Below, in pieces: positions 4,000 through 51,892 of a DNA stretch of 64,000 nucleotides (position 1 is its first letter; each line of letters opens with the position of its first letter). The notes under the pieces are model-generated. The model saw nothing but the letters and a program-made list of their open reading frames with translations. It was not told the DNA's origin and did not search any database. This DNA comes from a virus (lineage: Duplodnaviria; Caudoviricetes). Location: IMG/VR virus record IMGVR_UViG_3300020411_000002; one strand, given 5' to 3'. Both the position numbers and the translations under genes were made by a program.

Positions 4000-4883
4000 T
4001 GCTTGATAATTCAGATTTAAACCCGTATGGATACTTAGGGGACGCAATTGAAGAAGTACCGATATCAGAAGTACATAGGTTAGTTCAATCCAGACCTAAT
4101 GAGTTCATGGATATGAAAAAGCCTTTTCGTGGGGTGAAAGTTGTAGACTTTAATACGATTCCTGCTGTCGGTACTGATATAGTTTTCATTGCAGAGCATA
4201 ACAAGAAAATCATTGAGGGTCTTTTAATTCCCAAACGTGAAGAGTCTAGAGCCGTAGAAATCGCTAACGAAATTGATAGAGATAGTGCGGCACGTATAGA
4301 CTTGGACTTGATTAGACAACGCATAGCAGAATCTAAGAAAGGTCACACTCGCGATACAGTTACTCCAAAGCCAAATGGTTTACTTGAAGAGGGCGAACGA
4401 GGTCGTGCAGTTGAGAACATAGTTCCAATAAGTAAAGAAGATATTGAACGTAGTTTTGACTTAACGGAAAAGACTGCAAAGCAAATAGGTGATAGGGTGG
4501 CTAAACATCTTAGCTATCTCATTAGCTTTGATAATGCTGGAAGTTATGTAGAGGCGTTCGCCCGAGACGGATTGGATATTGAATCTGAAATAAATGTAGA
4601 CGATAGCCCACTCCACTTCTTATCGCAGTTGTGTTCTATTGATTCTTTGTACTTTTATCTTAAAAAGATGCGACTCCCAAAAGCCTATAAAGATATGTAC
4701 ATGGAACGAGTTATTCACTACTACGTAGAACGAGCAGCGAAAGACTCGGACAATGCTAGAACCAGTGAGCGTTTGCGCAGACTAAACAACGTCCAAAGCG
4801 CAGCAGGTCAAGTCAAAGAAGACGACAACAAGAATGCTCACGGCTTAGTTAGATCTAGACAAACAAACAGGACTCACTATTAG
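3999..4883 (+). CDS. Hypothetical protein upstream of terminase
   Basis: 294-aa ORF coupled to dnaB by TAATG overlap. Confidence 0.75.
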   Translation: MLDNSDLNPYGYLGDAIEEVPISEVHRLVQSRPNEFMDMKKPFRGVKVVDFNTIPAVGTDIVFIAEHNKKIIEGLLIPKREESRAVEIANEIDRDSAARIDLDLIRQRIAESKKGHTRDTVTPKPNGLLEEGERGRAVENIVPISKEDIERSFDLTEKTAKQIGDRVAKHLSYLISFDNAGSYVEAFARDGLDIESEINVDDSPLHFLSQLCSIDSLYFYLKKMRLPKAYKDMYMERVIHYYVERAAKDSDNARTSERLRRLNNVQSAAGQVKEDDNKNAHGLVRSRQTNRTHY

Positions 4884-5046
4884 AAGAATTCGCAAGTCTT
4901 CCAGTGGAAAAGATAAAGTAGATGTTAAGACTCCCGATCAACCTAAAAAGCGCAGACTCAAACGAAGAAAGCGCACAGAGGAAGTTCAGGAAATCAAAAC
5001 ATTTGAAGTCGCTCCACCTAGAGACAACTACAACCCTCTAGCTGAA

Positions 5047-8000
5047 TTGCTAAATATGGGTGAAGCTGATGATTCAGAATCAGAAGATTTATCTTTCCTC
5101 GACGAAAAAGAGCAGGAGTATAACCCTCTAGATGACGGTGAAGCCATAGACGTAATAGCTATGGTGGATGAAGTAATAGAGAACGATACTCTTGTTGCTC
5201 CTGACTTACGACTCGATGACTCTAGTTGTCCCGAAGCTCCAAACGTTTTTGATTGGATGATTAGTGACAAGTTTTTAGGATGTGAACCTCCGTACTTAGA
5301 ACAAGCACTTATCTGTATACAGTTATTCGCTGAGTATTGTGTAGCCAAAGGAAGTTACATATATACAGACAAGGGCTTGCAGACAATAGAAGATGCACTT
5401 GGCAATCCTGATAAGAAAGGAATGTATGAATGTAGCTTTTCTACAGTCGGTCTGTCGGGTATAAAAGAAGCTACATACGGTGGTATGACTTCTAAACGTA
5501 GAAAGTGTTTAAAAGTATCTTATGCTAATGGTAAAAGTGTTATTGTAACACCTGAGCATAAAATACTTAAACTCAATAAAAACTATTCTTTCAGTTGGGT
5601 GGAAGCTAGACACTTGGATGTAGGGGATGTCGGTGTATCTAAATTAGGTCAGAATTTATTTCCTGTAAACGCATACCGATTAGTATTTGAAGACGTAGAA
5701 CCTTCAAGACTCTATACGCATACTTCTGGACAAGTAGTAGACAATAACAATTCAGGTAAAGATTTTAGTATACCTGAATTAATGACTAATGAGCTTGCTA
5801 GGCTTATAGGGTACTTGATAAGTGATGGTTCAGTTGCTAGACAAGGCAATTCTATAGACTTTACCTCCTTGACAGATTCAGGTTTAGCAGACGATTTTGT
5901 TTACTGCATTAAATCTGTTTTTGGATTAGATTGTAAAACAACTACAGACAATTGGAAACCTAACAGTACCCGTCCTTATTCTTACGTTCAAGTTCATAGT
6001 AGAAAACTAGTTAGATTTTTTAATAGCTTAGGTGTAAGTGGGCTTTGCTACGATAAAACAATTCCTAAGTGCATTTTAGAATCTACGCGAGAACACGTTA
6101 TTGAATGTTTACGTGCTATAATGGATTGCGACGGCTGGACAGACTATAAAGTAGGTATAGTTCTTTCTAGTCAAAAAGCTGTAAAACAAATGCAACTTCT
6201 ATTCGATAACTTAGGGTTATACGGCAAGTATAGGGAATATGTAGATACAGGAAGTGCTGTTTCTCATAGAGAACATGACGATCCTAAAAATCTTAGAGCA
6301 GAATGGGTTCTTAGGTCTTGTCCAACACAGTTCGCTTCAATTATTGGAACGCGAAACAATTTACGAAAAGATAAGTTGTTTTCCAAGACTGCTAAAGACA
6401 CATCTTTTTCCGTATCAGGTAATGGAAACTATAAACCTGGAGTAGTACCTTTTGGTAGAGAACTCTATGCATATTCAAGTACTTTGCGAGATTCTTATCA
6501 TGATAAAGGTTTGTCTTACATTAAGTATGGACGTAGAGATTCTTTTATCGTATCAAATACCTTGTCTGACCCAGACTTTGTAGATTTTTGGAATAGAAAA
6601 GATAATCGTATTTTAAGCCGACTTGAAAAGCTAGACTCCTCTAATCTTTCTTTTTCAAGAATTGTTTCTGTAGAAGATGCAGGCATACATGAGGTTTACG
6701 ATATAACTGTTCCAGATGGTGAGAACTTTCAATGTGATGGAATGATAGTTCATAATTGTCCTCGATGCAGCGATACTGAATGGATGCACATTGATAACCA
6801 TGAACCACAAGAAGGTCTTGGTGCTATCGTTGAAAAAGTGCAAATGCTTAAATTCGGTAAATGTCCTAAGTGTAAAGCAGGTCGTGCGGAAATGATACGT
6901 AGCGGTGAGCTTAACTTCTACAATGAACTAGCTGTACTAGCTGGACAGCGTAGTGGTAAGAGTATCGTTACTGCAATGGCATCAACCTATATAACCCATC
7001 GCATTCTCAAAATGCAAAAGCCAACTGAAATATTCAGAGTTGGTAAGGGGCAAATCTTACATGCTACATTCGTGGCATTGACACAGGGTCAGGCGAAAGA
7101 AACGCTTTGGGACCCTTTTCTTGGTTATATCAACAACAGTCCTTGGTTCAAGAAATATCATGCACTAATGAAATTCTATGAGCGTAAGTATCATACCGAA
7201 TTCGTGCGTGTCAAGGATATGTTCATTCACTATAAACATCGTAACTTGATTCTGTATCCTGCAGGTCCTGATAAACGTAAGCTTCGTGGTAGAACACGGG
7301 TTATTGGTGCGATAGATGAAATCGGTTGGTTCGATAACAACAAAGCAAGTAACAAGATAACGGTAGATGCTAACGGTGTGTATGAGGCTCTTGTGCGTTC
7401 ACTTGGTACTATTCGTGCATCGGAAGACAGGCTTGTTGACATTGGATACGACCAAGCACTTACTGCATATATGCTAAACATCAGTTCACCGTCTAGTATA
7501 CGTGATAAGATTTGTGAGCTAGTAAGAACGTCTATTGGTTCTAGAAAAACATTCGGTCTTCATGCTCCAACGTGGAAAATGAACCCGACTATATCTAGAA
7601 ACAGTGGATTCATTGTTGAAGAATATCGCAAAGACCCAATTACAGCCCAGCGAGACTATGGTGCTGATCCACCTCTTAGTGCTAACGCATTTATCAATAA
7701 CAAATTGCTGGTGGAAGAGGCATTCAGTAAAACGAATCGCAACTTCATTAAGTACAAGCAAGACTTTATTGTTGTTGGTAAAGAGAAGTACAGATACGGT
7801 GTCGTAGATAAAGTTAAGCCTGGGTCAAGCTATAGTATAATGGCACTCGATGCTGGATATACAAACAACAGCTTCTCAATGGTTGTTGGTTCTTTCAACT
7901 CGCAAGGCATACCTACTATCGAAGTTGTGTGTGAGATTATTCCTAGACCGGGAATTCCATTACACTATACAATGATTTACGAAGAAGTTATGAAGCCTAT

Positions 8001-8559
8001 CATTGAGGCGCGTAACGTTAGAATAGTACTTGCAGATAGATGGAACAGCTTAAAGCTTTTACATGATATTCAATTAGACTTCCAAGACGTTGATATGATT
8101 ATCAAGCAGTACAGCTTGAAGTATCAAGACTTCTGGGCAGTTAAAACAGGTCTAGAGCAATTCCAATTAATTATTCCAGCTATGAACAAAGGTTCAGAAT
8201 TGGATAAGTTGTTGCGTGACCCTCTAGATGAATATCCATACTGCTTCGACGGAAGACCTATAGAACACCTTGCATTGCAGATACTAACTGTTCAAGATAG
8301 TGGTAGAACTGTATTGAAAGGCGAAGGCGATCTAACTGACGATTCATTCAGAGCGCTAAGTTTGTTCTATTGGGGAATTCGAGACCCAGAGTATTCGGAA
8401 ATAATCTTACAGCCAATGAAAGAGTCTGAGAAACCCAAGCTGCCTATCGGAATAGCGCTACTTGGCTCTAAGACAAATTCAAGTGGTGTATCTTCACAAG
8501 CCAAACACTACAGCAGCGGTAATGGCGGCAACATTGGTCTAACTCAACGGAGAAAATAA
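5047..8559 (+). CDS. terL: Terminase large subunit containing an intein (true start may be upstream, about 4879)
   Basis: After removing the intein: Zn-ribbon CPRC...CPKC, Walker A AGQRSGKS, Walker B GAIDEIG, NISSP coupling motif, RNase H-like nuclease ALDAG...DRW...DDSFRA; portal-like gene downstream. Confidence 0.88.
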   Translation: MLNMGEADDSESEDLSFLDEKEQEYNPLDDGEAIDVIAMVDEVIENDTLVAPDLRLDDSSCPEAPNVFDWMISDKFLGCEPPYLEQALICIQLFAEYCVAKGSYIYTDKGLQTIEDALGNPDKKGMYECSFSTVGLSGIKEATYGGMTSKRRKCLKVSYANGKSVIVTPEHKILKLNKNYSFSWVEARHLDVGDVGVSKLGQNLFPVNAYRLVFEDVEPSRLYTHTSGQVVDNNNSGKDFSIPELMTNELARLIGYLISDGSVARQGNSIDFTSLTDSGLADDFVYCIKSVFGLDCKTTTDNWKPNSTRPYSYVQVHSRKLVRFFNSLGVSGLCYDKTIPKCILESTREHVIECLRAIMDCDGWTDYKVGIVLSSQKAVKQMQLLFDNLGLYGKYREYVDTGSAVSHREHDDPKNLRAEWVLRSCPTQFASIIGTRNNLRKDKLFSKTAKDTSFSVSGNGNYKPGVVPFGRELYAYSSTLRDSYHDKGLSYIKYGRRDSFIVSNTLSDPDFVDFWNRKDNRILSRLEKLDSSNLSFSRIVSVEDAGIHEVYDITVPDGENFQCDGMIVHNCPRCSDTEWMHIDNHEPQEGLGAIVEKVQMLKFGKCPKCKAGRAEMIRSGELNFYNELAVLAGQRSGKSIVTAMASTYITHRILKMQKPTEIFRVGKGQILHATFVALTQGQAKETLWDPFLGYINNSPWFKKYHALMKFYERKYHTEFVRVKDMFIHYKHRNLILYPAGPDKRKLRGRTRVIGAIDEIGWFDNNKASNKITVDANGVYEALVRSLGTIRASEDRLVDIGYDQALTAYMLNISSPSSIRDKICELVRTSIGSRKTFGLHAPTWKMNPTISRNSGFIVEEYRKDPITAQRDYGADPPLSANAFINNKLLVEEAFSKTNRNFIKYKQDFIVVGKEKYRYGVVDKVKPGSSYSIMALDAGYTNNSFSMVVGSFNSQGIPTIEVVCEIIPRPGIPLHYTMIYEEVMKPIIEARNVRIVLADRWNSLKLLHDIQLDFQDVDMIIKQYSLKYQDFWAVKTGLEQFQLIIPAMNKGSELDKLLRDPLDEYPYCFDGRPIEHLALQILTVQDSGRTVLKGEGDLTDDSFRALSLFYWGIRDPEYSEIILQPMKESEKPKLPIGIALLGSKTNSSGVSSQAKHYSSGNGGNIGLTQRRK
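5338..6756 (+). mobile_element. Intein with LAGLIDADG homing endonuclease (473 aa) in terL
   Basis: Starts CVAKGSYI, block B TPEH, LAGLIDADG motifs LIGYLISDG and LRAIMDCDG, ends GMIVHN followed by +1 Cys (CPRC). Confidence 0.93.
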
Positions 8560-31422: not shown

Positions 31423-31910
31423 AGTTTTATATCTACCATAAGAGGTCTGTCATCTATGTTTTCGATAGCAAACCATCCAGTAGAATTAAACTCTACAGTA
31501 TTAGGCTCGTGCCCTGCATAGATAACAGAGTTGTCTTCGTTTCGAATTGCGTAACCACGATTCTCTTTAAAGTCTAATGATACACGACCTGTAGAGAACA
31601 AGCCGATAGACTTGAACTTATCTATACTAGCTGTACCCGATTCTGTTTTAAACTCCATCAGTTGTGAAGAAATAAAATAAGGTACATCGCTTTTGACAGT
31701 AAGAACAAATCTATCGGCAGGCGTGATTTTGAAACAATACGATTCCGCTTTTAATACTAAATTAGAGTTTTGAAGAACAGACTCTACTTGTGTGCTAAAG
31801 CAAATATAAGCATAGCCTGTAAACTTCGGTTTCTCTAATACCATTTGCTTGTTCATTGGAGTAGGAGCAAGCTTTGTATTCCATTGTAAAACGTTATGCA
31901 TATTAATCAT
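31419..31910 (-). CDS. Hypothetical structural protein
   Basis: 163-aa beta-rich ORF overlapping both neighbours. Confidence 0.7.
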   Translation of the reverse strand: MINMHNVLQWNTKLAPTPMNKQMVLEKPKFTGYAYICFSTQVESVLQNSNLVLKAESYCFKITPADRFVLTVKSDVPYFISSQLMEFKTESGTASIDKFKSIGLFSTGRVSLDFKENRGYAIRNEDNSVIYAGHEPNTVEFNSTGWFAIENIDDRPLMVDIKL

Positions 31911-34428
31911 CCGGGCAGTTCAGTAGTGGCTTAGCTTTGTTTCTCGCTTCTGTTTCGTCTGCGGCTTGTATACTGATAGTATCATCAGGTGACTTAGCAC
32001 AATAAGCAGTATAAGTATTTAAAACAGCCTCAGCGATACGGTCGTTAAGAACACTATCTTCTCCCGTAGTATATTCACTGAACGTTTCAAAGCTAGCAGA
32101 CGATACAACGCTAGGTGCAGTAGTTAAGATACCATTGTACCCTGCTTCTGCTGTCGGTGCATTACCAGACTGCTGTGCCGATTCTCCTAGTATACGAACT
32201 ACTGTAACTTTCAAATCTTCAATGTGACTTGGAACAGTTCCGATAGTACTATTCCACGTTGAGCCTTCTTCGGCAGTTACTTCATCTACTTCAATTGTAG
32301 TAGTATTAGCTTCGCTTTCTTTCGGGTGGTTGTCGCTTGCAGAGCTGTATGTATAGAACATAGTTGTAGTAGGATATCCATCTGTGGCATCAGTTATGTA
32401 CAGAATACTTACTTTCTTTTGAGTGGTAGGCACGTTGTCTAAAACATATCTAACGTAAGAAGTAAACATGGATACGGATGCAAACTCACCACCTATAATT
32501 GCATTACTTGGTATTGAGAAGTCATTTAGTATCTGAATTATAGTATCGTCACGAGTTTGTTCAGGTGTCCCATTTAAAGTAATATCACTACCATTCGAAG
32601 TAGAGCCTGACATATCTCGGAAGATATATACTTGAAAGCTTTCGCCCTCACTAGCTAACTCAACTTCCGTAACATCAGGAGTATTATCGACTATTGTAGC
32701 AATGCCCTCCCTTTTGCCTATAGTTCCGATACTAGGATTAGAAATAATAAGCTTGAATGTTTCGTCATGCTCTGGAACGTCATCACACTTGATAACGATA
32801 TCCACCTGCTTAGATGTATCGCCTTCATCAAATGTTACTGTACCTGTTGCTGCCGTAAAGTCGCTACCAGAAGTAGCAGTTATTCCAGTTGTCGAATACT
32901 CTACGGTACGACTATCTCCTATGACTGCTTCACTCGAAGTAATGGTGAACGTAGCTGTAGTATCTGTATCAGAAGCACTACACTCGGCAACGTTGATATC
33001 ATTAACAGAGAATTCAGTTCCGTTATTTACAACTACGCAAGGCATTTCAAAGGTTAGTATTGCATCGTCTGAATCTTCTACGCCTGCTGTAGAGTAATCT
33101 AAATCAGATACTGTGACGTTAACTGTGTAAGGTATCAACTGTCTAGCATCTTCTTCCTTAATAGTGCGAGTAAGTTTGAATATGCCTATACGTCCACCTT
33201 GTTCAACACCTTTAAGTGTTAGTTCTCTGGAAGGACTAGACCATACATACTTATATCGTCTAAGTTGCCAGTCAGGTGGATCAACAAATCTAACTTCAAC
33301 TTTGACTTCTGAAACAAACGTATCGCCTACGTTCAAACATCTATCTTCACATGGAATAATCGGGTCTGGTTCTGGTGGCGGTGGCGGTGGTGGCTCAGGT
33401 GGTTCTGGCTCTGAATACTCTTCTACTGGAACTTTCTTGAAGATTTCTAACCATTGACCTCCTCTTGGGCGCACCGACCAGTACAAAGAAAAAGAACTTC
33501 CTACTACTTCCATCCAGTGATCAGTACCAACTTGATGTGCAAAGCCAGCTCCGTTAGATAACAAAGGCATAAGCTTTTCAGAAAGTATCATGTGACCTTG
33601 TTGGCAAAGCTCATTAGTTTTGTACGTATCAAGAGTAGAGAACATGTATTCACCATCTACAGGCATAGATGCTTTTGATACTGACATTGTGTTAAGAGGA
33701 CCTGAGCCCTTAGATACAGATTTAAACGTGTTATAAAAACCTTTGTCCAAATCGTAGTTCATAGGTCTTCTATAGATTCTATAGATTTTGTGGCTACTTA
33801 CTCTGAACTTAGTTTGTGTCGTTTCTGTAGTTCCAGAAAGATTTATCCAGTCATCCCATCCACTACGGCCCCAGTACTTTATCATTCTATTGCTAAAGTA
33901 CTTAGTTTGCGTATATGCACTTCCGAAGTTATAGAAGATTGTGCCGCTATAATATCTTTCTTGGCTAGACTGATTACATTCTACTACAAACAAATACTCA
34001 TAGTCTTTTTCAAAGTTAGTGATAGTAAGAGTCTTGCCTTGTGTTGTATACCAAAGCTCAAACTCGGCAGTATTATCGGCAGGGTCTAATAGAGAAGTAT
34101 CTGGAACTAAGTTTCTTTCACTTATTCTAACTATTCCACTACCGTCCTTACTTCTGACGAGTCTAAATCTCTTTGTTCCACTTGTAGTTATTTCAGCCGT
34201 AGCTAAGTGGTCAATACCTCCACTAGCTCTCCAACCAATAGTACCACTTGTAGGCTTTTGGAGATCCATATCAGGAGGTATATTTATAAATGTATGACCT
34301 ACTTCATCGTCTTTACTTAGTTCGCGTACTTGTATGCAGTACTCTTTATTCGGGGCCCACTCATAATTAAATGTTTGGACACCCGATGGGTTGTAAAATA
34401 TCTCAACCCACGGGTTCACTTGTGCCAT
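31903..34428 (-). CDS. Adhesin-like virion protein with Pro-rich linker, Calx-beta domain and vWA domain
   Basis: PEPPEPPPPPPPEPDP linker; Calx-beta (FSVNDINVAE...TATSGSDF...GTVTFDEG...DDVPEHDETF, about 32686-33015); MIDAS DMSGS at 32602-32616 plus YITD. Confidence 0.8.
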   Translation of the reverse strand: MAQVNPWVEIFYNPSGVQTFNYEWAPNKEYCIQVRELSKDDEVGHTFINIPPDMDLQKPTSGTIGWRASGGIDHLATAEITTSGTKRFRLVRSKDGSGIVRISERNLVPDTSLLDPADNTAEFELWYTTQGKTLTITNFEKDYEYLFVVECNQSSQERYYSGTIFYNFGSAYTQTKYFSNRMIKYWGRSGWDDWINLSGTTETTQTKFRVSSHKIYRIYRRPMNYDLDKGFYNTFKSVSKGSGPLNTMSVSKASMPVDGEYMFSTLDTYKTNELCQQGHMILSEKLMPLLSNGAGFAHQVGTDHWMEVVGSSFSLYWSVRPRGGQWLEIFKKVPVEEYSEPEPPEPPPPPPPEPDPIIPCEDRCLNVGDTFVSEVKVEVRFVDPPDWQLRRYKYVWSSPSRELTLKGVEQGGRIGIFKLTRTIKEEDARQLIPYTVNVTVSDLDYSTAGVEDSDDAILTFEMPCVVVNNGTEFSVNDINVAECSASDTDTTATFTITSSEAVIGDSRTVEYSTTGITATSGSDFTAATGTVTFDEGDTSKQVDIVIKCDDVPEHDETFKLIISNPSIGTIGKREGIATIVDNTPDVTEVELASEGESFQVYIFRDMSGSTSNGSDITLNGTPEQTRDDTIIQILNDFSIPSNAIIGGEFASVSMFTSYVRYVLDNVPTTQKKVSILYITDATDGYPTTTMFYTYSSASDNHPKESEANTTTIEVDEVTAEEGSTWNSTIGTVPSHIEDLKVTVVRILGESAQQSGNAPTAEAGYNGILTTAPSVVSSASFETFSEYTTGEDSVLNDRIAEAVLNTYTAYCAKSPDDTISIQAADETEARNKAKPLLNCPDD

Positions 34429-34430
34429 AC

Positions 34431-37400
34431 TTATACCTTTCGATTGACTGTATCTACGTTGTGTACTAGGAAAGGATTTCTACCAACGTAGTAAGAATCA
34501 CTTTCTTCAACGTCTATACAGACTACATCAATCGGATCATCTACGCGTGTTAAAGAACCTACAAGAACTTCTTCTTTGTCTCCATAACAAGAAAGAAGTA
34601 CATCGCCTACTTTCATATCCCTAACGTCCATCCACTGCCAAGTGTCATCGCGTTTAACAAAGATAAGGTGTTCTTGGGTTATTTCAACATCACCATTAAT
34701 AATCCAATATTCTCTAAACCAATCGTGTTTGATTGCTCGAATTGTACTAACTACAGGATAACGTCCGTTTATGTCTTTAGTAGTCCAGTCTTCCCAACCA
34801 TCTACGTTTTCATCAATCATATTAGGAATGAATTCACTAACGAGTCGGTCACCTACTTTAAGTCTTTCTGCGTTAATAGATTTTCCATCTTCTAGCACGA
34901 CCATCGTACCAAAAGATATACAACCACCACCGCCACCACCTGAATAAACTTGTGCTTTCTGCTGTAAGCTTACTTCAATAGGTGCAGACTTTTGTACGTT
35001 ACCCAAGTCGTCTTTAACAAATATCTCTACTGTTAAATTGGCAATTCCTGCTAAACTTGAATTAGAAACCGCACGTTCAAACTGAATACTCATGCACTGA
35101 TTATTAGCGCCGTAGTTTGAAACACTATTAGGTACATCGGCTGTTTCTTTAGATTCATCAAAAGCACAATACGGCTTTATCGATACGCGAGACCCTGGGA
35201 TTGAATTGTTAACTGTAACAACGTTCCACTTATAGGTGTAAGAACGCGCTGGGTCAAATTCAAATTCCGCTAATAGTCTGCTAGTCCAATTAGTGCCTGC
35301 TGCTTTGTCGTCAACTCCACTTGTAGCGCTGTCCGCAGTTTTAGACATAGTAAAGCAAGCTACCTTTCCATTGTCTTGTGCATACTGAGGAACACCGTCA
35401 CCTAAGTCACCGTCAGTGCCCCAATCCATATCCAACTTATTAGAGTTAATCTTGAAAGCTAGAATAGTTTCAGGGTGTGCGTACTTAGTTGCAGTAACTT
35501 TTGCAGTACCAGTACTTCTAAGAGTTCCAGTATATACAATGTTCATATCTCCTTGAACAGGGGCAGATGATTCTACAATAGTAGCAATGCCTTCATCTTG
35601 AATGATAGCACCAACGCTTGCATCGTAGATGATAACTTTAAACTGTTCATTCGGGTCACGTTCACTATCAGCAAAAGTATTAATGCTAATAGTACCACTG
35701 CCTGCACCTGCTGGAATAGTAAGACTTCCAGATTTAGATTGATAATCTGCATTTGATGTAGGAGTAGACGGGCTTCCATCTGAACCAGTATTAGCTAGCG
35801 TAAAGTTTGTCATACGCTTAACACCGCTCTGGTTTTCGAAAGAACTAGACCCAGACAAGTCTTCAAACAGATAGCTGTCACCTGCTTTGTCTTTTATTTG
35901 CTGAACAGAAACACTACGCGCACCAGACGGGCTAGATACGGTAGAGTCAGACGCTGGAATATCTACCAAGCTCTTAATGTTGAAAGAGTTGATAAGGTCT
36001 TTAGCGTGAGCGTTAGCAAATCTGTAGTAGTTGCCTGCGGTACTTATATCAAATGCTGCTGCACTGATCACTACCATAGGCTTAGAACCTTTAGCTGCTC
36101 TCGCTACTGCAACACCAAACGCTGTACCTTGTTCAAGATTAAACATCTTGTTCAAGAAGTGATTAGAAGTATCTACTCCTGCGTTTTCTTTAGCGTGGTG
36201 TCTCCATTCTCCAAACTGGTCAGATACAATAATGTCATAGTTACCTACTACGTTTTTAGGTGAACTATAAGTTGCATCTTGGTACGAGTAGCTACCTTGC
36301 TTGACAGTTCCATGTGCATCAAACTCATTGACTACGTGAACATCAACCTGAATACCGTAAATGTTTGCCAGTGACTTAGTGAAGAAGTCCATAACAGTAG
36401 ACATTTGGTAAACGATTTCATATTCACGCTCATTTACTCTTGGATCAGGGTCATAGGGTGTAGAGTAAGATTGAATACGCTGGTGGGTTACTACCAATAG
36501 CTTTTTACCAGATAAAGAACCAAGACGGTGCTTTAACATATTAACAATCATCTTTTGGTAATCGTTAAGTTCTTCGAATGTAGAAACGCTACGGTCAACA
36601 TCCCTATTTGCATCAGTTCCATTGTATGCAGTAACTGTCTCTAGATAGTTTTCAACATCGTAAAGTCTGTGTGGGTCTGCTTCTAACATTAACGTATAGC
36701 CGTCAGTATCGTTAGAGTAAACAACTGTAGAAACATGATTACTATCTCTGAATAACGGATATGGATTAACTTCACCTGCTGCAACGGCTTCGCTGCTAGC
36801 AGTCATATCTTCCGTTCTATAGTTCAAAGACAAGTCTTCATTGATTGGATAGTTAAGACCTACTGTAAATTTAGCTGTAGAGCCTTCCGCTACTGTAATA
36901 CTATTAATAGCTATTTGAACATCAGGACAATTTGGAACTTCCTGATCATCAATCTCTACATCTAAGAGAGGAATATAACAGCCAACCCAATAAGCCCAAC
37001 TACTGTCAATAGGGCAATCGATACGTACACTGATTTCTCGCAAGTCATCGTAGTCCGCACTTTCTTCTAGTCTAAACCACTGTAAGAAAGTTGTACCTCT
37101 GCTTCGTTTAGCAGTTACTAACTTTCCTTTCTTGTTGAATACGCTAGCTGTATACGTAAAGTCTCCATAACCAGTAACTTTAATTGAAGCTACGCCGTTA
37201 TCGAGGTCGTTCATTAAGTAGTGGTCTTCTGTACTGTGGTGTCCAGCACTGTTTATGCCTGACTCTGGTACTTCACAAGGCCAACGATTCTCTTTGTACC
37301 CGCGAGTATTTGGATCATAAAGCATGTACTCTTGCGAAAGCACATCTGACCCGTACTCCCGTTGACTTGCCATTACTTTAACTACGATATCAGGAACAGC

Positions 37401-39688: not shown

Positions 39689-40150
39689 TTAAACCCTGTT
39701 ATGTACTAAAATGCCATTTAGAAAATATGTATCACACATATCAACCTTTAGCTCGAATGTTTGTACACTAACTTCTATAAAAGAAATTGTCTCTACTTGA
39801 AATTGCGTAGAGTGTCCAAACATAACATCACCTTTTTGAATTTGTGGAGGCTTTTTCCATTCCCAAAAATCATTACGCTTGATTAAAATGGGTTGGTCGG
39901 CTACAAAGTGCATCAAGTTTATTTTATAGTATCCACTACGTATAAATATTTCGCGGTCTATAACAGTGCCTTCAATAACTTTTCCTTGAACGTCTTTTGT
40001 AGCCCATTCCATAGCGAACTCTTGATTACCAAATCTAGAACTAGGCATAGCACCTATTCTTAATGCAGTAATCTGATCGCCTACGAATACATCTTGTGTA
40101 TTCTTACTTTTAAGAGTATCTGTTCCTGTAGTAATCCTTTGCTTAATCAT
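39689..40150 (-). CDS. Stand-alone Hint-domain protein lacking Cys1 and block-B TxxH
   Basis: VFVGD, IQKGD, KVDMCDTYFLNGILVHN-RV; TAATG coupling to the upstream gene. Confidence 0.85.
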   Translation of the reverse strand: MIKQRITTGTDTLKSKNTQDVFVGDQITALRIGAMPSSRFGNQEFAMEWATKDVQGKVIEGTVIDREIFIRSGYYKINLMHFVADQPILIKRNDFWEWKKPPQIQKGDVMFGHSTQFQVETISFIEVSVQTFELKVDMCDTYFLNGILVHNRV

Positions 40151-41661
40151 TAGTGCTTAACCGTTTGTGTTGTGTTATGGACAACAATAGGCTCATGTCC
40201 GGCAAAGTAGTTATCGTATGGTTCAACGTCTAGTACGACAACATTGAGATTTTCTTTAACTTGATCGATAGACTTGATTTCAATAACTCCATCTGTACCT
40301 TTAAGAAAGTCACCAACTTTAATGTCAGTCGCATCATACCAACCCCACTGCTGATTCTTTCTAACTAGAACAGGGTGGTCTTGGGTAATACATACGTCAT
40401 TGTTAATCTTCCAATACTGAGTGTAGCTAGCATTGTAAGCAACTCGCGCTGTAGTAGGTACAATCTTCGGATTCTTGAACTCTGTAGTCTTCCAATCTTT
40501 CCAATTTCTTTCGTCTTCGTCTAGCATTCCTGTCGAAGTAAAGGACTGTAGAGTATCGCCTACTTTAACATATTTAGCTCGTTTAGTACTTCCATCCCAC
40601 ATAAGAATTGGAGTATCTTCGTGTACACAACCACCGCCACCAACTATGATAGGACCTCCAGGCTCAGTCTCTTCACTATTATCTCTGCTGTTGTAACCTG
40701 AGAAAGAGAAGCGAATATTCTTGATAGACAAACGTTTATTGTTATCGCCTCTATCTGTAATAACGAGTTCCATCTTACCAGAAAAGCTATAGCTTTGTTG
40801 AGGTTGAATAGTACGTAATGCAGCAATCTTTAGTGAACGTGACGTAGTAGAACCGTCAATAGAAATTCCAGCTTCACGCATACTGTTATCAGTATCGACC
40901 CACTTGTAACTGAAAGGACCTATTCCACCTTCAAAGTTCGTTAATGAAAGAATAGCGTTACCGCCGTAAGAATCATCAGTAACGTGAGCTAGTCTAACAC
41001 TAACATCTGTTACTTGTCCTGACATTGGATCAGCTTCTACTATCGGTGAGGGAAGAGAAGTGCCACTAGGTCGCGCCCAAAGAAAGTAGTTTGAGTCTGG
41101 TGCGTTCTCTCCATAGTATACTGTTTCCGCTGGTTTGATTCCTTGTATACCACGTTCACCAACTATACAGCTAGGCCCAGCAGGTCCAACAGGTCCCATG
41201 TTACCAACGTCACCATCTTCACCAGTGTCTCCACGCAATCCAATAGGACCGGGACACCCCATATATCCAGTAACACCAGTTTCACCATCATTACCATCTA
41301 GACCTTTATTGCCAGCTTCACCAGTAGGTCCAATCGGTCCTTCGCATCCAGTCTTTCCTTTCTTACCATCACGACCAATTCTACCATCACGACCTTTCTT
41401 GCCAGCAGGGCCTTTATCTCCACGAGGACCTTCACCCATCTGACCGAGCGTTAAGAATCCAGACACCTCTACAACTTCACCATTATGTCTGACAAAGTTG
41501 AGTGTGCCTGTTCTCTTGTTGAATCCGATTTGTGCAATAGCTCTTTCGCTAACAGGTTGTTCTGAACTGTATGCTAAACTTTTTAGGGAATCAGTCTTTA
41601 AACTAGTTCCCTCTTTATTCTTGCTAGGTACAAGACTTTTAATGTTAGCTTCTTGTGCCAT
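40150..41661 (-). CDS. Collagen-like fibre protein with C-terminal Hint domain
   Basis: FNKRTGTLNF domain, Gly-X-Y run, beta domain, IVGGGG-CVHEDT...TQDH...VVHN-TTQTVKH. Confidence 0.85.
   Translation of the reverse strand: MAQEANIKSLVPSKNKEGTSLKTDSLKSLAYSSEQPVSERAIAQIGFNKRTGTLNFVRHNGEVVEVSGFLTLGQMGEGPRGDKGPAGKKGRDGRIGRDGKKGKTGCEGPIGPTGEAGNKGLDGNDGETGVTGYMGCPGPIGLRGDTGEDGDVGNMGPVGPAGPSCIVGERGIQGIKPAETVYYGENAPDSNYFLWARPSGTSLPSPIVEADPMSGQVTDVSVRLAHVTDDSYGGNAILSLTNFEGGIGPFSYKWVDTDNSMREAGISIDGSTTSRSLKIAALRTIQPQQSYSFSGKMELVITDRGDNNKRLSIKNIRFSFSGYNSRDNSEETEPGGPIIVGGGGCVHEDTPILMWDGSTKRAKYVKVGDTLQSFTSTGMLDEDERNWKDWKTTEFKNPKIVPTTARVAYNASYTQYWKINNDVCITQDHPVLVRKNQQWGWYDATDIKVGDFLKGTDGVIEIKSIDQVKENLNVVVLDVEPYDNYFAGHEPIVVHNTTQTVKH
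40174..40629 (-). other. Hint (intein-like) domain 2, 152 aa
   Basis: Cys1, TQDH, DVEPYDNYF, VVHN with +1 Thr; no endonuclease. Confidence 0.9.
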
Positions 41662-48930: not shown

Positions 48931-50393
48931 TATCTGTCCTCACGTTCTGTGTACTTAACGAAAACGTTCAAACTGTTAAGTGTCACATACTCTAGTTTTG
49001 AATCTGGCTCAAGGTCGTTGGTAGGACTTAGTACTTCTACGTAGTCAACACCATCACGGCGCGTGTCTTCATCTGGAATAAACTTACATACGTCAATAAC
49101 ATCTGACTTGGAAAAGCGTTTGCCTAACATGCCTGGCTTACGTTTGAATAGCTGTATAATTGCTTCACGTAATGTAGCTTTCATTTCTTGCAAGTTAACC
49201 CAGTCTTGTACAGATACTTCAACATTCAAATCAACCAGAATCTTTTTCGGGTTGTATGTTTGAATCGTAATGTGAGGACCTATACGTTGCTGTGCGTATG
49301 TTACAAAGTCATTCCATATTGCGCTACGTGGATTAGGATTATCACCGCCCCAAGTAGCACTACCAATTGGCAGAATACATACACGAACTACATTCATCCA
49401 GCTTGGGTCATTTGGGGCAATATCGCGCTGAGACATAATAGTACAATCAGCAACGCCCGGATACTTCATGATGTTGCCTTTCCAGCTAGACGGTCTAGTC
49501 CATGTATTCTTAGACTGGTAAATATGTGGGGCATACTTTTTGTAATACGCTGCTGACTTTGGAAACGTACCACCTTTAATGTTCTCAATAGAAGAACCTG
49601 TAACTAATGGATTAGCTACTACGGTTGCTCGTGTACCAGTATTACCAACGTTGCCGTTCTGACCTTGAGTAATTACATACTGAACAATAACAGTATCTTT
49701 CTTTGTCAGTGCTTTACCAAACGTACCATCACCAAATAGAAGAGAAACATCACCATCACCTGTTGTAGATTCAAAATACTTTGTATCTGATGAAGTGAGA
49801 TCAGTTAGAGATTCTTCGTGGTCTTCCCATTCTGTGTAATCGCCTTTTTCATCTACTGTATAAACAAGTAGATCGTGATCAGCAACTGAGAAGTTAGGTT
49901 CACCTAGTACAATCTCTGGCATGTTTATGTTTCTGTTTGCCATTGAGAATTCTTTACGACGAACAATGCCTTCATAGAGTGTGAATATCTTTGTTTCTCT
50001 TACTTGCAGTATAATACTTTCACGACAATAAAAGCTTCTACCAGAAACGTTTATCTGGGCGTATGGAGGCACGTTAACTTTTTCATTTGAGTTGTTCGTA
50101 AGTTGGAACTCTGCTCTTGCACTGGTACGGCGATTTATCTTAACGCCTAACATTCTTGTACAAGCAAAGATACTGCTATCTCTTCTAGCATGAGTAATAA
50201 AAGATTCTAGCTGTGCAATGTCTAGGTTAACACCTGCATTGGTATAAAGACCTGCCATTACATCTACAAGAAACGTATTTAAACTAGAAGTAAGTTTATC
50301 TTGCCAAGGGTATTCTTGTGCAAACTGTTCTTGGATTTCGTCAACAATGTTTTGGAAACCTACTGTAGTTCTCGATAGTTGAATGTTGTTCAT
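48930..50393 (-). CDS. Baseplate wedge protein (T4 gp6/P2 gpJ-like)
   Basis: ESFITHARRDSSI, GDGDVSLLFGDGTFGK, YVITQGQNGN, ETxEE-like region, position after gp25. Confidence 0.85.
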   Translation of the reverse strand: MNNIQLSRTTVGFQNIVDEIQEQFAQEYPWQDKLTSSLNTFLVDVMAGLYTNAGVNLDIAQLESFITHARRDSSIFACTRMLGVKINRRTSARAEFQLTNNSNEKVNVPPYAQINVSGRSFYCRESIILQVRETKIFTLYEGIVRRKEFSMANRNINMPEIVLGEPNFSVADHDLLVYTVDEKGDYTEWEDHEESLTDLTSSDTKYFESTTGDGDVSLLFGDGTFGKALTKKDTVIVQYVITQGQNGNVGNTGTRATVVANPLVTGSSIENIKGGTFPKSAAYYKKYAPHIYQSKNTWTRPSSWKGNIMKYPGVADCTIMSQRDIAPNDPSWMNVVRVCILPIGSATWGGDNPNPRSAIWNDFVTYAQQRIGPHITIQTYNPKKILVDLNVEVSVQDWVNLQEMKATLREAIIQLFKRKPGMLGKRFSKSDVIDVCKFIPDEDTRRDGVDYVEVLSPTNDLEPDSKLEYVTLNSLNVFVKYTEREDR

Positions 50394-50890
50394 AGTCGCT
50401 TCAATCCAAATTCTATGTTTTCAAAAGTTAGCCCAAGTCTAGGTATCTCTATAGCGATAGAAACAAAGTAATTGCCGTTGTCTACATCTGGTAGAACTTC
50501 AACGTTGCGCACATTAACTCTGCCGTCCCCTATTCTACTTCCAGTAAGACCAGTAATGATAGTGCTACGAATAGCGTTAGCAGTTACTGTATCTAAAGGT
50601 TGAAATAGGAGTCGTTCTAAGTCTACACCAAACTCAGGTCTAAACCATCTTGTTCTTTTGCTTACACCTAGTATCATCATGATACTTTGCACAACGCTTT
50701 CTCTGTCGCGCACTTCTGTTTGAGAAGTTTTATTCATTTGAAGGTTTACGTCTGAGAATAAAAAGTTGCGCTGGGCAGTTCTGTGGGTATCAACTATATT
50801 ATCTCTTTGAGCTATAGCTGTATTGTTGGTAGGGATTTCTTGTGCTGTGTGTCTTTCGTAATAAGAAAGATTGATAGGAGAACGTGCCAT
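50390..50890 (-). CDS. Baseplate gp25/gpW-like sheath initiator
   Basis: FSDVNL...VVQSIMMILG...RWFRPEFGVDLERLLFQPLD. Confidence 0.88.
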   Translation of the reverse strand: MARSPINLSYYERHTAQEIPTNNTAIAQRDNIVDTHRTAQRNFLFSDVNLQMNKTSQTEVRDRESVVQSIMMILGVSKRTRWFRPEFGVDLERLLFQPLDTVTANAIRSTIITGLTGSRIGDGRVNVRNVEVLPDVDNGNYFVSIAIEIPRLGLTFENIEFGLKRL

Positions 50891-51174
50891 TAACCACCTG
50901 CCTTTACATTAGAGCTTCCTTGTCCTGCTGTGTCTCCACAAGTAAGCTTCTTTCCTGTAGTATGAATACCTTTACCATTAACTTTAACAGTCGATGAACC
51001 TAATGCTGCGCCTTGGTGACAACTGCTAGATATACAATGGACGGCGTACTTATCGCCTTGACGCACAACACCAATACCATTAGCTTTGACGTTGCTGCTT
51101 GCTTGGATGGATGGAACAGGCGGATAGCCGTGACCTACACTCTTATCTCCAAGTCTCATAACTGAACTACCCAT
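50890..51174 (-). CDS. PAAR spike-tip protein (94 aa)
   Basis: MRLGD...GH...SSNVKANG..VVRQGD...HC...CH...SSTVKVNG...CGD...GSSNVKAGG; ATG 51174 has GGAG SD, so the ORF-track 5' extension is dropped. Confidence 0.9.
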   Translation of the reverse strand: MGSSVMRLGDKSVGHGYPPVPSIQASSNVKANGIGVVRQGDKYAVHCISSSCHQGAALGSSTVKVNGKGIHTTGKKLTCGDTAGQGSSNVKAGG

Positions 51175-51262
51175 AAGTACTCCTGCACTCAGTAATTTTA
51201 TAAAACTGTAAATACCACGTAATAATAGTAAATTAGCAAATTGCAAATCAAGGGGTTGCTCC

Positions 51263-51892
51263 ATGCTCTATGCAAGAAATGTTTTACAAAGCCTGTATGA
51301 TGAAGCTAAGACCGATACAGAACGAAAGAAGCTTCTGGACGGTCTAGTTGTCAATGCAAGCGTTAACCACTTCTCCCATCTATCGGACTCTAATACTACT
51401 GTAAGTAAGCCTAATATTTCTTGCAGACACTCTTGGACTTTAACTGCTGAGGCGGGCTTTAAAATTGTAGGTGTCACTTTAGATATACTGGATACGGTAG
51501 AGAAGGCTACAAAAGAACTGGTAGATAATATTATCGACGCAAGAGACTTTAAAGTCTTAGAATCTTATGCGCAGATTCAGAAAGTTCTGGGCGACGATGG
51601 TAAGACTTTAATGAATGGTAACACGCGTTATTTAATAAAAGCTATGCCTGAACTGTCCCAGTCTGTCTATGATGCATTGACGTTTACTGACACACCTAAT
51701 AATAATGTTTCTATTTTCGCTATGGAAAGTAGATACATAATTAAAATACCGCAATTTGGGTCTGCATTTAGAGTAGACATTAAAGAAAGTACGTTTGACT
51801 CAAAAGCAAAACCCGTATACAAAGCAGAAATAGACTTCAATTGGGACTTTGAAGGTCTAGAAGTTTATTTAATTAACAAGAGTATGTTATGA
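51263..51892 (+). CDS. Hypothetical protein, first gene of the rightward block
   Basis: 209-aa ORF divergent from PAAR. Confidence 0.7.
   Translation: MLYARNVLQSLYDEAKTDTERKKLLDGLVVNASVNHFSHLSDSNTTVSKPNISCRHSWTLTAEAGFKIVGVTLDILDTVEKATKELVDNIIDARDFKVLESYAQIQKVLGDDGKTLMNGNTRYLIKAMPELSQSVYDALTFTDTPNNNVSIFAMESRYIIKIPQFGSAFRVDIKESTFDSKAKPVYKAEIDFNWDFEGLEVYLINKSML

Follow-up and report, generated by a model that had tools for sequence, protein, structure and literature searches.

The C-terminus of P0001, a protein encoded in a 64,000-nucleotide stretch of phage DNA (the whole stretch analysed, hereafter the window), is a genuine Hint fold that belongs to the type-A BIL class by both sequence and structure. 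Active self-removal beginning at the Gly-Cys bond is probable for this domain. The fuller reading that we favour, with confidence somewhat short of even, is that the last 163 residues constitute a self-excising type-A BIL cap in which both junctions are cut and Lys1366 serves as the acceptor. The features on which the analysis draws are collected in Table 1.

Table 1. Features of the P0001 Hint module and related elements of the window
Feature	Position	Strand	Support or remark
Gene of P0001, a virion/fibre-module protein of 1367 aa	34431..38534	-	ORF and Pfam/PHROG matches
Hint domain of the type-A BIL class (155 aa, from Cys1205 to Asn1359), without homing endonuclease	34458..34922	-	Pfam, AF2, Foldseek, profile
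Gly1199-Gly1204, six-glycine linker abutting the scissile bond	34923..34940	-	Codons GGT GGT GGC GGT GGT GGT
Cys1205, Hint residue 1 nucleophile (block A)	34920..34922	-	Cys invariant in family alignment A1
Insert specific to the family, separating block A from block B, residues 1236-1252	34779..34829	-	Consensus GMxDE....W..W.T
Block B TQEH, residues 1286-1289 (Thr1286, His1289)	34668..34679	-	
Block F, residues 1337-1351	34482..34526	-	Family-invariant Glu and Asp (E158, D161 in A1)
His1358-Asn1359, end of block G	34458..34463	-	Asn invariant in A1
Eight-residue tail Val1360-Val1367 (VDTVNRKV)	34434..34457	-	Miniature 'C-extein'
Val1360, +1 residue	34455-34457	-	
Lys1366, sole lysine of the tail	34437..34439	-	Candidate acyl acceptor
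Stop codon of the P0001 ORF	34431-34433	-	
P0003, collagen-like fibre protein, 503 aa	40150..41661	-	Paralogous module in the same operon; ends GGGG-C...TQDH...HN-T-tail with one Lys
P0004, free-standing degenerate Hint, 153 aa	39689..40150	-	In the same operon; without Cys1 and T..H; ends HN-R-V
Canonical intein with LAGLIDADG domain	4849-8556	+	HN-Cys kept at the junction; within-genome contrast to the P0001 Hint

Three parts make up P0001: an uncharacterised N-terminal region (PHROG 26008), then a Calx-beta domain (Pfam, E 1.5e-6) and finally the C-terminal Hint cap. Its gene lies downstream of those for PAAR and the gp25 baseplate wedge, synteny is kept in four related jumbo-phage contigs, and P0001 belongs to the baseplate/fibre module of a marine jumbo myovirus. 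The label of adhesin given to it in the sequence-only reading is tentative, its only support being the Calx-beta match and the position in the baseplate/fibre operon. Megablast of the gene against phage records returned no match, nor did NCBIfam searches with the Hint domain and with the N-terminal 1198 residues; word-indexed homologue searches yielded few matches, almost none of them informatively named. Among cultured relatives, homologues come from an Erwinia Alexandravirus and from Dickeya phage AD1.

The match of the P0001 C-terminus to the Hint family is far beyond chance, because Pfam, profile, AF2 and Foldseek results all lead to it. The only Pfam model recognising the phage Hint was PT-HINT (PF07591), which scored 30.6 bits on the isolated domain (E 4.5e-7; cut-off 27.7) and 23.7 bits in the whole-protein query, where the alignment covered only the C-terminal half of the model. 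A profile built from 69 relatives matched the C-terminal stretch of P0001 at E 1e-63, and comparison of the family profile with PDB sequences gave BIL2 as the best among solved structures (E 4.5e-14), with the Cth BIL at E 1.1e-13. The AF2 model of the Hint domain reached a mean pLDDT of 90.1 and a pTM of 0.84; the eight-residue tail was modelled at low confidence (pLDDT ~35). Submitted to Foldseek, this model matched BIL, intein and Hedgehog Hint structures with probability 1.00, and 53 PDB entries fell at E<=0.001, those listed all being BIL, intein, Hedgehog or Vint. The top structural matches were the C. thermocellum BIL (2lwy, E 3e-8) and Tetrahymena BIL2 (6y75/6tmm), the latter with a TM of 0.80 to the Hint model.

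The traits of a type-A BIL are present in P0001: Cys1, T..H and HN, no nucleophile at +1, no homing endonuclease and a host of the variable surface type. In inteins and type-A BILs, it is the Asn at this position that undergoes cyclisation. The P0001 domain departs from a canonical class-1 intein in its Val at +1 and in the mere 8 residues that follow Asn, and the window itself holds an intein of that canonical kind for contrast. Gly6, Cys1205, TQEH, HN and the +1 Val had all been pointed out earlier from the letters, and the ORF translation and codon coordinates located each as claimed. The span then given to the module, 34458-34943, has the Asn1359 codon at one end and the Ser1198 codon at the other, and omits the eight-residue tail.

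The family to which the domain belongs numbers at least 1026 clusters. Among the best 150 of 1026 matches, the Hint nearly always closes a fibre or surface protein, standing at its extreme C-terminus. Companion domains in these proteins are Calx-beta, collagen, PKD, Big_2, Flg_new or fn3. Of 138 representatives taken at 50% identity, 136 have kept Cys1, 124 the T..H of block B and 135 HN, and the Cys is preceded by at least one Gly in 95 and by four or more in 43. One Trp of the two in the family-specific insert (W62 in alignment A1) is near-invariant, and profile positions 54-69 remain unaligned to BIL2. By contrast with these fixed positions, the +1 residue takes 16 different identities (A32, K24, V13, L11, S10 and others). 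The orthologues of P0001 have V, T, A or D there, and there is therefore no selection for a +1 nucleophile. Tails of 1-15 aa follow the domain in 121 of the 135 HN-bearing representatives.

This conservation bears on whether the domain reacts at all. It is highly improbable that the Hint is chemically silent, staying attached as a structural or binding tip with its catalytic residues as relics. A dead, free-standing Hint (P0004 in this genome) is conserved in four genomes, and Hint folds can thus persist here in non-catalytic roles. However, 90-99% of the 138 diverged representatives still carry Cys1, T..H and HN, and both active paralogues, P0001 and P0003, retain all catalytic residues in the four genomes at Hint identities down to 32-66%. 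What relaxation looks like is seen in the truly dead paralogue, from which both Cys1 and T..H are gone.

Apart from the catalytic residues, the most conserved feature is Lys1366, and an account that passes over the tail and its single lysine, as the sequence-only reading did, leaves out a candidate cis acceptor. Lys occurs in 129 of 133 short tails, against an expectation of 26-27 and a maximum of 43 over 2000 random draws, and 125 of the 133 hold exactly one. The four tails without Lys have no Arg in its place. Lys makes up 16.1% of tail residues versus 3.4% in the protein body, and Arg 2.2% versus 2.8%; Ser and Thr are depleted in the family tails, and neither Arg nor Gly is enriched. Tails of a single residue consist of Lys in 10 of 11 cases, and the internal linkers of tandem Hint arrays read HN-K-G(1-4)-C. 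All four orthologues of P0001 keep the tail Lys while the adjacent residues vary. Taken as a sequence pattern, the conservation of Lys1366 points to a putative acyl acceptor in cis.

Two trivial sources of the lysine were considered and rejected. The codons at the end of the tail, CGA AAG GTA TAA GT ATG, place AAGG directly ahead of the start of the next gene, as a ribosome-binding site would be. Three of the four orthologues, however, have no GG adjoining the Lys codon, and a ribosome-binding-site artefact is further ruled out by the Lys of the array-internal linkers, by that of the one-residue tails and by the lack of Arg and Gly enrichment. A general Lys bias of phage C-termini was the second; 92 other ORFs from the same loci have Lys within the last 6 residues in 41% and as the last residue in 14%, compared with 97% of family tails with Lys and 91% of one-residue tails that are Lys.

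The Lys lies 1 to 11 residues past Asn, a spacing that fits a tether and fits equally well the recognition of a C-terminal K-x motif by another factor. In the dead free-standing Hint, the residue after HN is K, K, K and R (R in P0004), a comparison of four sequences to which a wider homologue search added only one near-identical protein. Because this paralogue, which is incapable of forming a thioester, retains HN-K/R, a structural function of the basic residue that follows HN may come in as well.

From the sequence features, the fold, the class and the conservation pattern, we infer the following chemistry and purpose. After folding of the domain, Cys1205 would attack the Gly1204 carbonyl in an N-to-S acyl shift aided by Thr1286 and His1289, leading to a fibre-Gly6 thioester; such an activated Gly-thioester, which the sequence-only reading had also named as the first product, would be expected from an intact Hint domain. 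The thioester would then be resolved by an amine or by water, with no classical branched ester because the +1 residue is Val. The likeliest dedicated acceptor would be Lys1366, which the flexible eight-residue tail would tether close to the active site, and its reaction would form a Gly1204-(N-epsilon)Lys1366 isopeptide. In a third step, cyclisation of Asn1359, aided by His1358, would release the 18-kDa Hint domain. The net product would be a 132-kDa mature protein without Hint, its flexible Gly6 end capped by the 8-residue Lys peptide, or free if water wins. The cap would probably act as a removable folding or assembly helper or in quality control of the fibre tip. A short Lys peptide on the end of a fibre offers no obvious benefit, which speaks against the capped product.

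Water may indeed win. Plain self-cleavage, in which the Gly1204-Cys1205 thioester is hydrolysed and the Hint is shed with or without its tail, HN and Lys being kept for folding, for catalysis of hydrolysis or by ancestry, is possible although rather unlikely. It requires the least chemistry, a disposable module would be expected at the end of the protein, where the domain is nearly always found, and HN-K/R persists in the dead paralogue, which has no thioester in need of resolution. In the studied type-A BILs, as PMC4031507 summarises them, cleavage is dominant, so that hydrolysis may be the main fate here. On the other hand, hydrolysis leaves the invariant Asn, the strict tail Lys with no Arg substitution and the depletion of Ser and Thr unexplained, and the Hint types described in PMC4031507 as cutting N-terminally only (Hedgehog-type and type-B) do so without HN.

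The invariant HN also raises the question of ordinary peptide splicing. The earlier claim that the domain forms no branched intermediate and cannot splice holds for the classical (thio)ester branch, which is excluded with a +1 residue that is not a nucleophile; the wider statement 'cannot splice' goes too far, given that type-A BILs with HN ligate without a +1 nucleophile and BIL2 forms an isopeptide. According to the summary in PMC4031507, Asn cyclises first in type-A BILs of this kind and aminolysis then joins the flanks, the mechanism proposed by Dassa 2004 and Aranko 2013. Applied to P0001, Asn1359 would cyclise first and the alpha-amine of Val1360 would attack the thioester to give a GGGGGG-VDTVNRKV peptide bond, accounting for both the conservation of HN and the free choice of +1. 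This route is nevertheless very unlikely: it leaves the strict single Lys unexplained, and the HN-K-stop tails (10 of 11 one-residue tails) would lose the freed amino acid unless its side chain had reacted earlier.

A closer precedent for the proposed role of Lys1366 is provided by BIL2, the closest solved relative, in which a ubiquitin-like Gly C-terminus is moved onto the Lys epsilon-amine of the downstream segment as an isopeptide, as reported via PMC8616854; the comparison of the P0001 Gly end with ubiquitin, drawn earlier from the letters, thereby finds a precedent. BIL2 also couples its upstream ubiquitin-like domain to Ras GTPase and others, besides the downstream domain (PMC8616854), and the Gly6 thioester of P0001 might likewise be attacked in trans by a Lys of another virion protein, by a lipid or by a small molecule. 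Such covalent coupling, comparable to Hedgehog cholesteroylation or to the 'ubiquitin dispensing' of BIL2, was the proposal of the sequence-only reading, with the Hedgehog case as its model. In its flexibility the Gly6 end is reminiscent of the tail of a ubiquitin-like protein, and the conserved two-Trp insert could be an acceptor site. Conjugation in trans is still improbable, given that no acceptor candidate was identified, that the 8 residues past the Hint provide no adduct-recognition region, that the conserved cis Lys by the active site would compete with outside nucleophiles, and that such a route does not need the conservation of HN.

Returning to Lys1366 as acceptor, a broader and somewhat speculative reading regards the Gly-run/Hint/one-Lys-tail module as a self-contained, ATP-free ligation device of the virion. 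In it, the Hint would turn the C-terminal glycine of the fibre into a thioester and hand it to one designated lysine, a Lys-directed 'isopeptide splicing' in which Lys replaces the +1 Cys/Ser/Thr of inteins. The lysine would be that of the tail, in cis, or, for some members, would belong in trans to another virion or host-surface protein.

The module combines traits of several known systems. To our knowledge, the biological role of BIL domains, known since 2003, is unsettled. Type-A BILs (Amitai 2003, Dassa 2004 and Aranko 2013, cited in PMC4031507; structure 2LWY) share with it, in the account given there, the mini Hint, Cys1, T..H, HN, the lack of a homing endonuclease and of a conserved +1 nucleophile, and hosts that are variable surface-type proteins instead of conserved enzyme sites. 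In contrast to them, the phage family is located at the very end of the protein after a Gly run, with 1-15 downstream residues that include one Lys, contains the GMxDE....W..W.T insert and resides in phage fibre/baseplate proteins, and its activity is predicted. BIL2 of Tetrahymena thermophila BUBL1 (6Y75/6TMM; Chiarini et al. 2021 via PMC8616854) likewise has Gly-Gly before Cys1 and no +1 nucleophile. BIL2, for which zinc dependence is reported, differs in being internal, between two ubiquitin-like domains of a eukaryote, and in lacking the family insert, whereas the downstream partner of the phage module is only an 8-residue peptide.

Hedgehog/Hog (1AT0, 6TYY; Foldseek E 3e-5) resembles the phage module in its C-terminal Hint and Gly-Cys bond. 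In that system, the N-terminal part is released via a thioester and handed to a nucleophile other than water. Hedgehog/Hog lacks both HN and cleavage on the C-terminal side and carries a sterol/adduct recognition region after the Hint, where the phage module has HN and 8 residues. The PT-HINT of polymorphic toxins precedes a toxin domain that is thought to be released by Hint; P0001 differs in stopping 8 residues after HN, and the RHS-type members retrieved have no Lys after HN.

Our literature search brought up no description of a Hint or BIL domain at the end of a phage fibre, and the related phage papers found dealt with inteins of the ordinary kind, in genes for terminase, polymerase or reductase. 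The phage Gly-run/Hint/Lys-tail family is large and apparently unstudied, and with its at least 1026 clusters it puts BILs in a concrete and easily tested setting, the tips of phage fibre/baseplate proteins, with a sharp single-mutant prediction that one conserved lysine is the acyl acceptor. If the Lys route is true, isopeptide-forming splicing, seen once in a ciliate, would extend to viruses of bacteria as a new mechanistic class of protein splicing, and the family would supply natural modules of small size (~155 aa) with which protein C-termini could be activated or ligated.

Tailspike and fibre chaperone domains of the Peptidase_S74 type cleave themselves off after assembly by means of a Ser-Lys dyad. 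They are a possible functional analogue of the Hint cap with an unrelated fold and chemistry, and Pfam gave no Peptidase_S74 match in P0001 at E<=0.1. If only hydrolysis takes place, the Hint cap would represent a second, independent solution for self-removing C-terminal domains of phage fibres, and the annotation and expression of receptor-binding proteins would be affected, with mature masses 18 kDa below those predicted.

The C-terminal Hint domain of the main protein carries the Gly6 run, Cys1205, TQEH, His1358-Asn1359 and Val1360 at the positions named by a sequence-only reading, as verified by translation of the ORF. The span considered in that reading stops at the Asn codon, and the tail lies outside it: Val1360 and seven further residues precede the stop codon, forming an eight-residue tail with one lysine. 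The "adhesin" role given to the protein is regarded as only plausible, because its N-terminal 1198 residues match just Calx-beta and a PHROG of unknown function.

Coordinates of the Hint-bearing genes, their key residues and neighboring features in the window
Feature	Position	Strand	Basis or remarks
Large ORF with canonical intein and LAGLIDADG homing-endonuclease domain	4849-8556	+	Pfam: Intein_splicing 2.7e-13, LAGLIDADG_3 6.5e-9
Calx-beta protein	31903-34428	-	Last in operon order, after main gene
Main ORF, 1367 codons	34431..38534	-	ORF read in window
Lys1366, sole Lys of tail	34437-34439	-	Translation
His1358-Asn1359	34458-34463	-	Translation
TQEH, residues 1286-1289	34668-34679	-	Translation
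Family-specific insert between Hint blocks A and B	34779-34829	-	Consensus GMxDE....W..W.T, 69-row alignment
Cys1205	34920-34922	-	Translation
Gly1199-1204, six Gly codons	34923-34940	-	Translation
Free-standing degenerate Hint, 153 aa	39689-40150	-	Without Cys1, without T..H
Collagen-like fibre protein ending in Hint	40150-41661	-	GGGG / C, TQDH, HN, 7-residue tail with one Lys
gp25 baseplate wedge	50390-50890	-	After PAAR in operon order
PAAR	50890-51264	-	First in operon order

The isolated domain (155 residues, no endonuclease) gave a Pfam match to PT-HINT (E 4.5e-7), and an AlphaFold2 model from 69 relatives reached a mean pLDDT of 90.1, with uncertainty only in the Gly linker and tail. 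Foldseek placed the bacterial intein-like domain (BIL) of C. thermocellum (2LWY) and BIL2 of the Tetrahymena BUBL1 locus (6Y75/6TMM) at the top, above mini-inteins and Hedgehog, and the family profile gave the same order from sequence (BIL2 4.5e-14, Cth BIL 1.1e-13). In contrast, the true intein of the same phage contains a LAGLIDADG domain and ends in an HN / Cys junction. BIL2 is the closest solved relative of the phage family. It has no counterpart of the insert between blocks A and B, in which one Trp is at least 90% conserved in the 69-row alignment; this insert might serve as a lid or bind an acceptor. The profile also matched PDB 8w20/8w22 (E 1.7e-9), at residues 1081-1222 of a chain of 1368 residues that bears the name "Intein C-terminal splicing domain-containing protein". 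Domains of this class were first described in 2003, and the searchable literature yielded no account of their use as a Gly-run/Hint/one-Lys cap at the end of phage fibre proteins.

At E<=1e-3, an exhaustive HMMER search found 1026 representatives, each standing for a 50% identity cluster; 262 of them pass E<=1e-10. Among the best 150 of the 1026, which range from 63 to 3105 residues, the match ends a few residues from the protein C-terminus in nearly all. The N-terminal parts of the family comprise PKD, Big_2, fn3, CARDB, Listeria-Bacteroides repeat, collagen, Calx-beta or nothing recognizable. Two members placed on long contigs both have genes of large phages as neighbors: one lies among gp32 and a UvsW-like helicase, the other near a methyltransferase and a faint match to primase (DnaG). 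In 138 aligned representatives, Cys1 is present in 136, the block B T..H in 124 and HN in 135, with the Asn invariant in the 69-row alignment, while the +1 position is occupied by 16 different residues (A32, K24, V13, L11, S10 and others). Since Gly runs before Cys1 recur among these representatives (at least one Gly in 95, at least four in 43), the Gly6 run is a family trait rather than a peculiarity of the main gene.

The most striking regularity of the family is the single tail Lys, which appears to be a protein-level constraint. Lys is present in 129 of the 133 tails that are 1-15 residues long, against an expectation of about 26-27 from composition or random windows of the same proteins (maximum 43 in 2000 draws), and 125 tails have exactly one. 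Where the tail is a single residue, it is Lys in 10 of 11 cases. The share of Lys is 16.1% in tails versus 3.4% in protein bodies, that of Arg 2.2% versus 2.8%. Tails are poor in Ser and Thr, and the four of the 133 that lack Lys do not contain Arg either. RHS-type PT-HINT domains from the same search show no Lys of this type. A general Lys excess at phage C-termini was rejected: of 92 other ORFs from the same loci, 41% have a Lys among their last six residues and 14% end in one. In the window, the ribosome-binding site of the next gene includes AAG-G from the tail; a Shine-Dalgarno constraint was rejected because no GG lies beside the Lys codon in three of four orthologues, and it is also countered by internal linkers of tandem arrays (HN / K-G(1-4) / C), which are free of such a constraint.

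Type-A BILs form an N-terminal thioester and cyclize the C-terminal Asn, and they can join their flanks by way of a free amine even when no +1 nucleophile is present, although cleavage dominates (PMC4031507). The BIL2 product is an isopeptide from the upstream C-terminal Gly to a Lys of the downstream segment (PMC8616854 section 2.4). Both systems contradict the earlier statement that such a domain cannot splice; its view that the classical branched ester is impossible is shared here, and the activated Gly end is expected. On the reading favored here, the domain excises itself: Cys1205 would form a thioester with the Gly6 end, this would be resolved by Lys1366 or water, and cyclization of Asn1359 would release the Hint (18 kDa) from a mature protein of 132 kDa. 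Active self-removal is probable, and a silent domain is scarcely to be expected. Transfer of the acyl group to the Lys in cis is a serious though tentative proposal: it would account for the invariant Asn, strict single Lys, free +1 residue and variable spacing, but it offers no evident benefit, and the dead free-standing paralogue still ends in HN-K in three related genomes and in HN-R in the window. Plain hydrolysis, in which water receives the acyl group, leaves both the invariant Asn and the strictly single Lys unexplained and is somewhat less likely. BIL2 is also able to conjugate other proteins with its upstream domain (PMC8616854 section 2.4), which lends the conjugation envisaged previously a genuine precedent. 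The data point first to a cis acceptor, the overlooked tail Lys, and an acceptor in trans is unlikely. A splice through the alpha-amine seems quite improbable.

The main gene belongs to a baseplate/fibre operon in which three large proteins separate gp25 from the collagen-like Hint fibre gene. The Hint of the latter is a second, putatively active cap; its +1 Thr has probably not been selected as a nucleophile, because two orthologues have Ala or Asp. The start of the free-standing Hint gene overlaps the stop of this upstream gene by one base, and two short collagen-like fibre genes follow before the main gene. Within 34428-34440 (-), the final tail codons of the main gene, AAG GTA TAA, provide the Calx-beta gene, only 2 bases away, with an AAGG ribosome-binding site 8 bases upstream of its ATG. 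Phage NCTB (LT598654, 258 kb) has the same order of genes, as do two metagenomic contigs, 278 kb and 47 kb long, of which one comes from a marine metagenome. Jumbo phages of Erwinia and Dickeya encode distant homologues of the smaller Hint-bearing fibre, with annotations as virion structural or tail proteins. Across four genomes, the two active paralogues are orthologous (identity 47-66% and 32-61% within type, 32-44% between types) and retain every catalytic residue, whereas Cys1 and T..H are gone from the free-standing paralogue; the +1 residue of the main gene is V, T, A or D. In the 278-kb contig L006 (9001-10530 and 12182-16312), the two active Hints show the top between-paralogue identity of the four genomes, 44%, and near-identical tails (DPTFKKK and DPTFNKN); gene conversion at the 3' ends is a possible cause of this likeness.

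Tandem arrays of the same Hint type occur in the metagenomic proteins P0153, P0137, P0120, P0133, P0061 and P0107, where the linkers before the next Cys1 are only K-G-G, K-G-G-G-G, K-G and the like; if every unit fires, tiny Lys-Gly peptides would be released or concatenated. Proteins P0180-P0184 (~750 aa), which one source calls "Tim44-family lipid-binding", have a signal-peptide-like start followed directly by GGGG / C-Hint-HN / K-G / C-Hint-HN / K-poly-Gly, a cellular, probably secreted, use of the Gly-run/Hint/Lys module.
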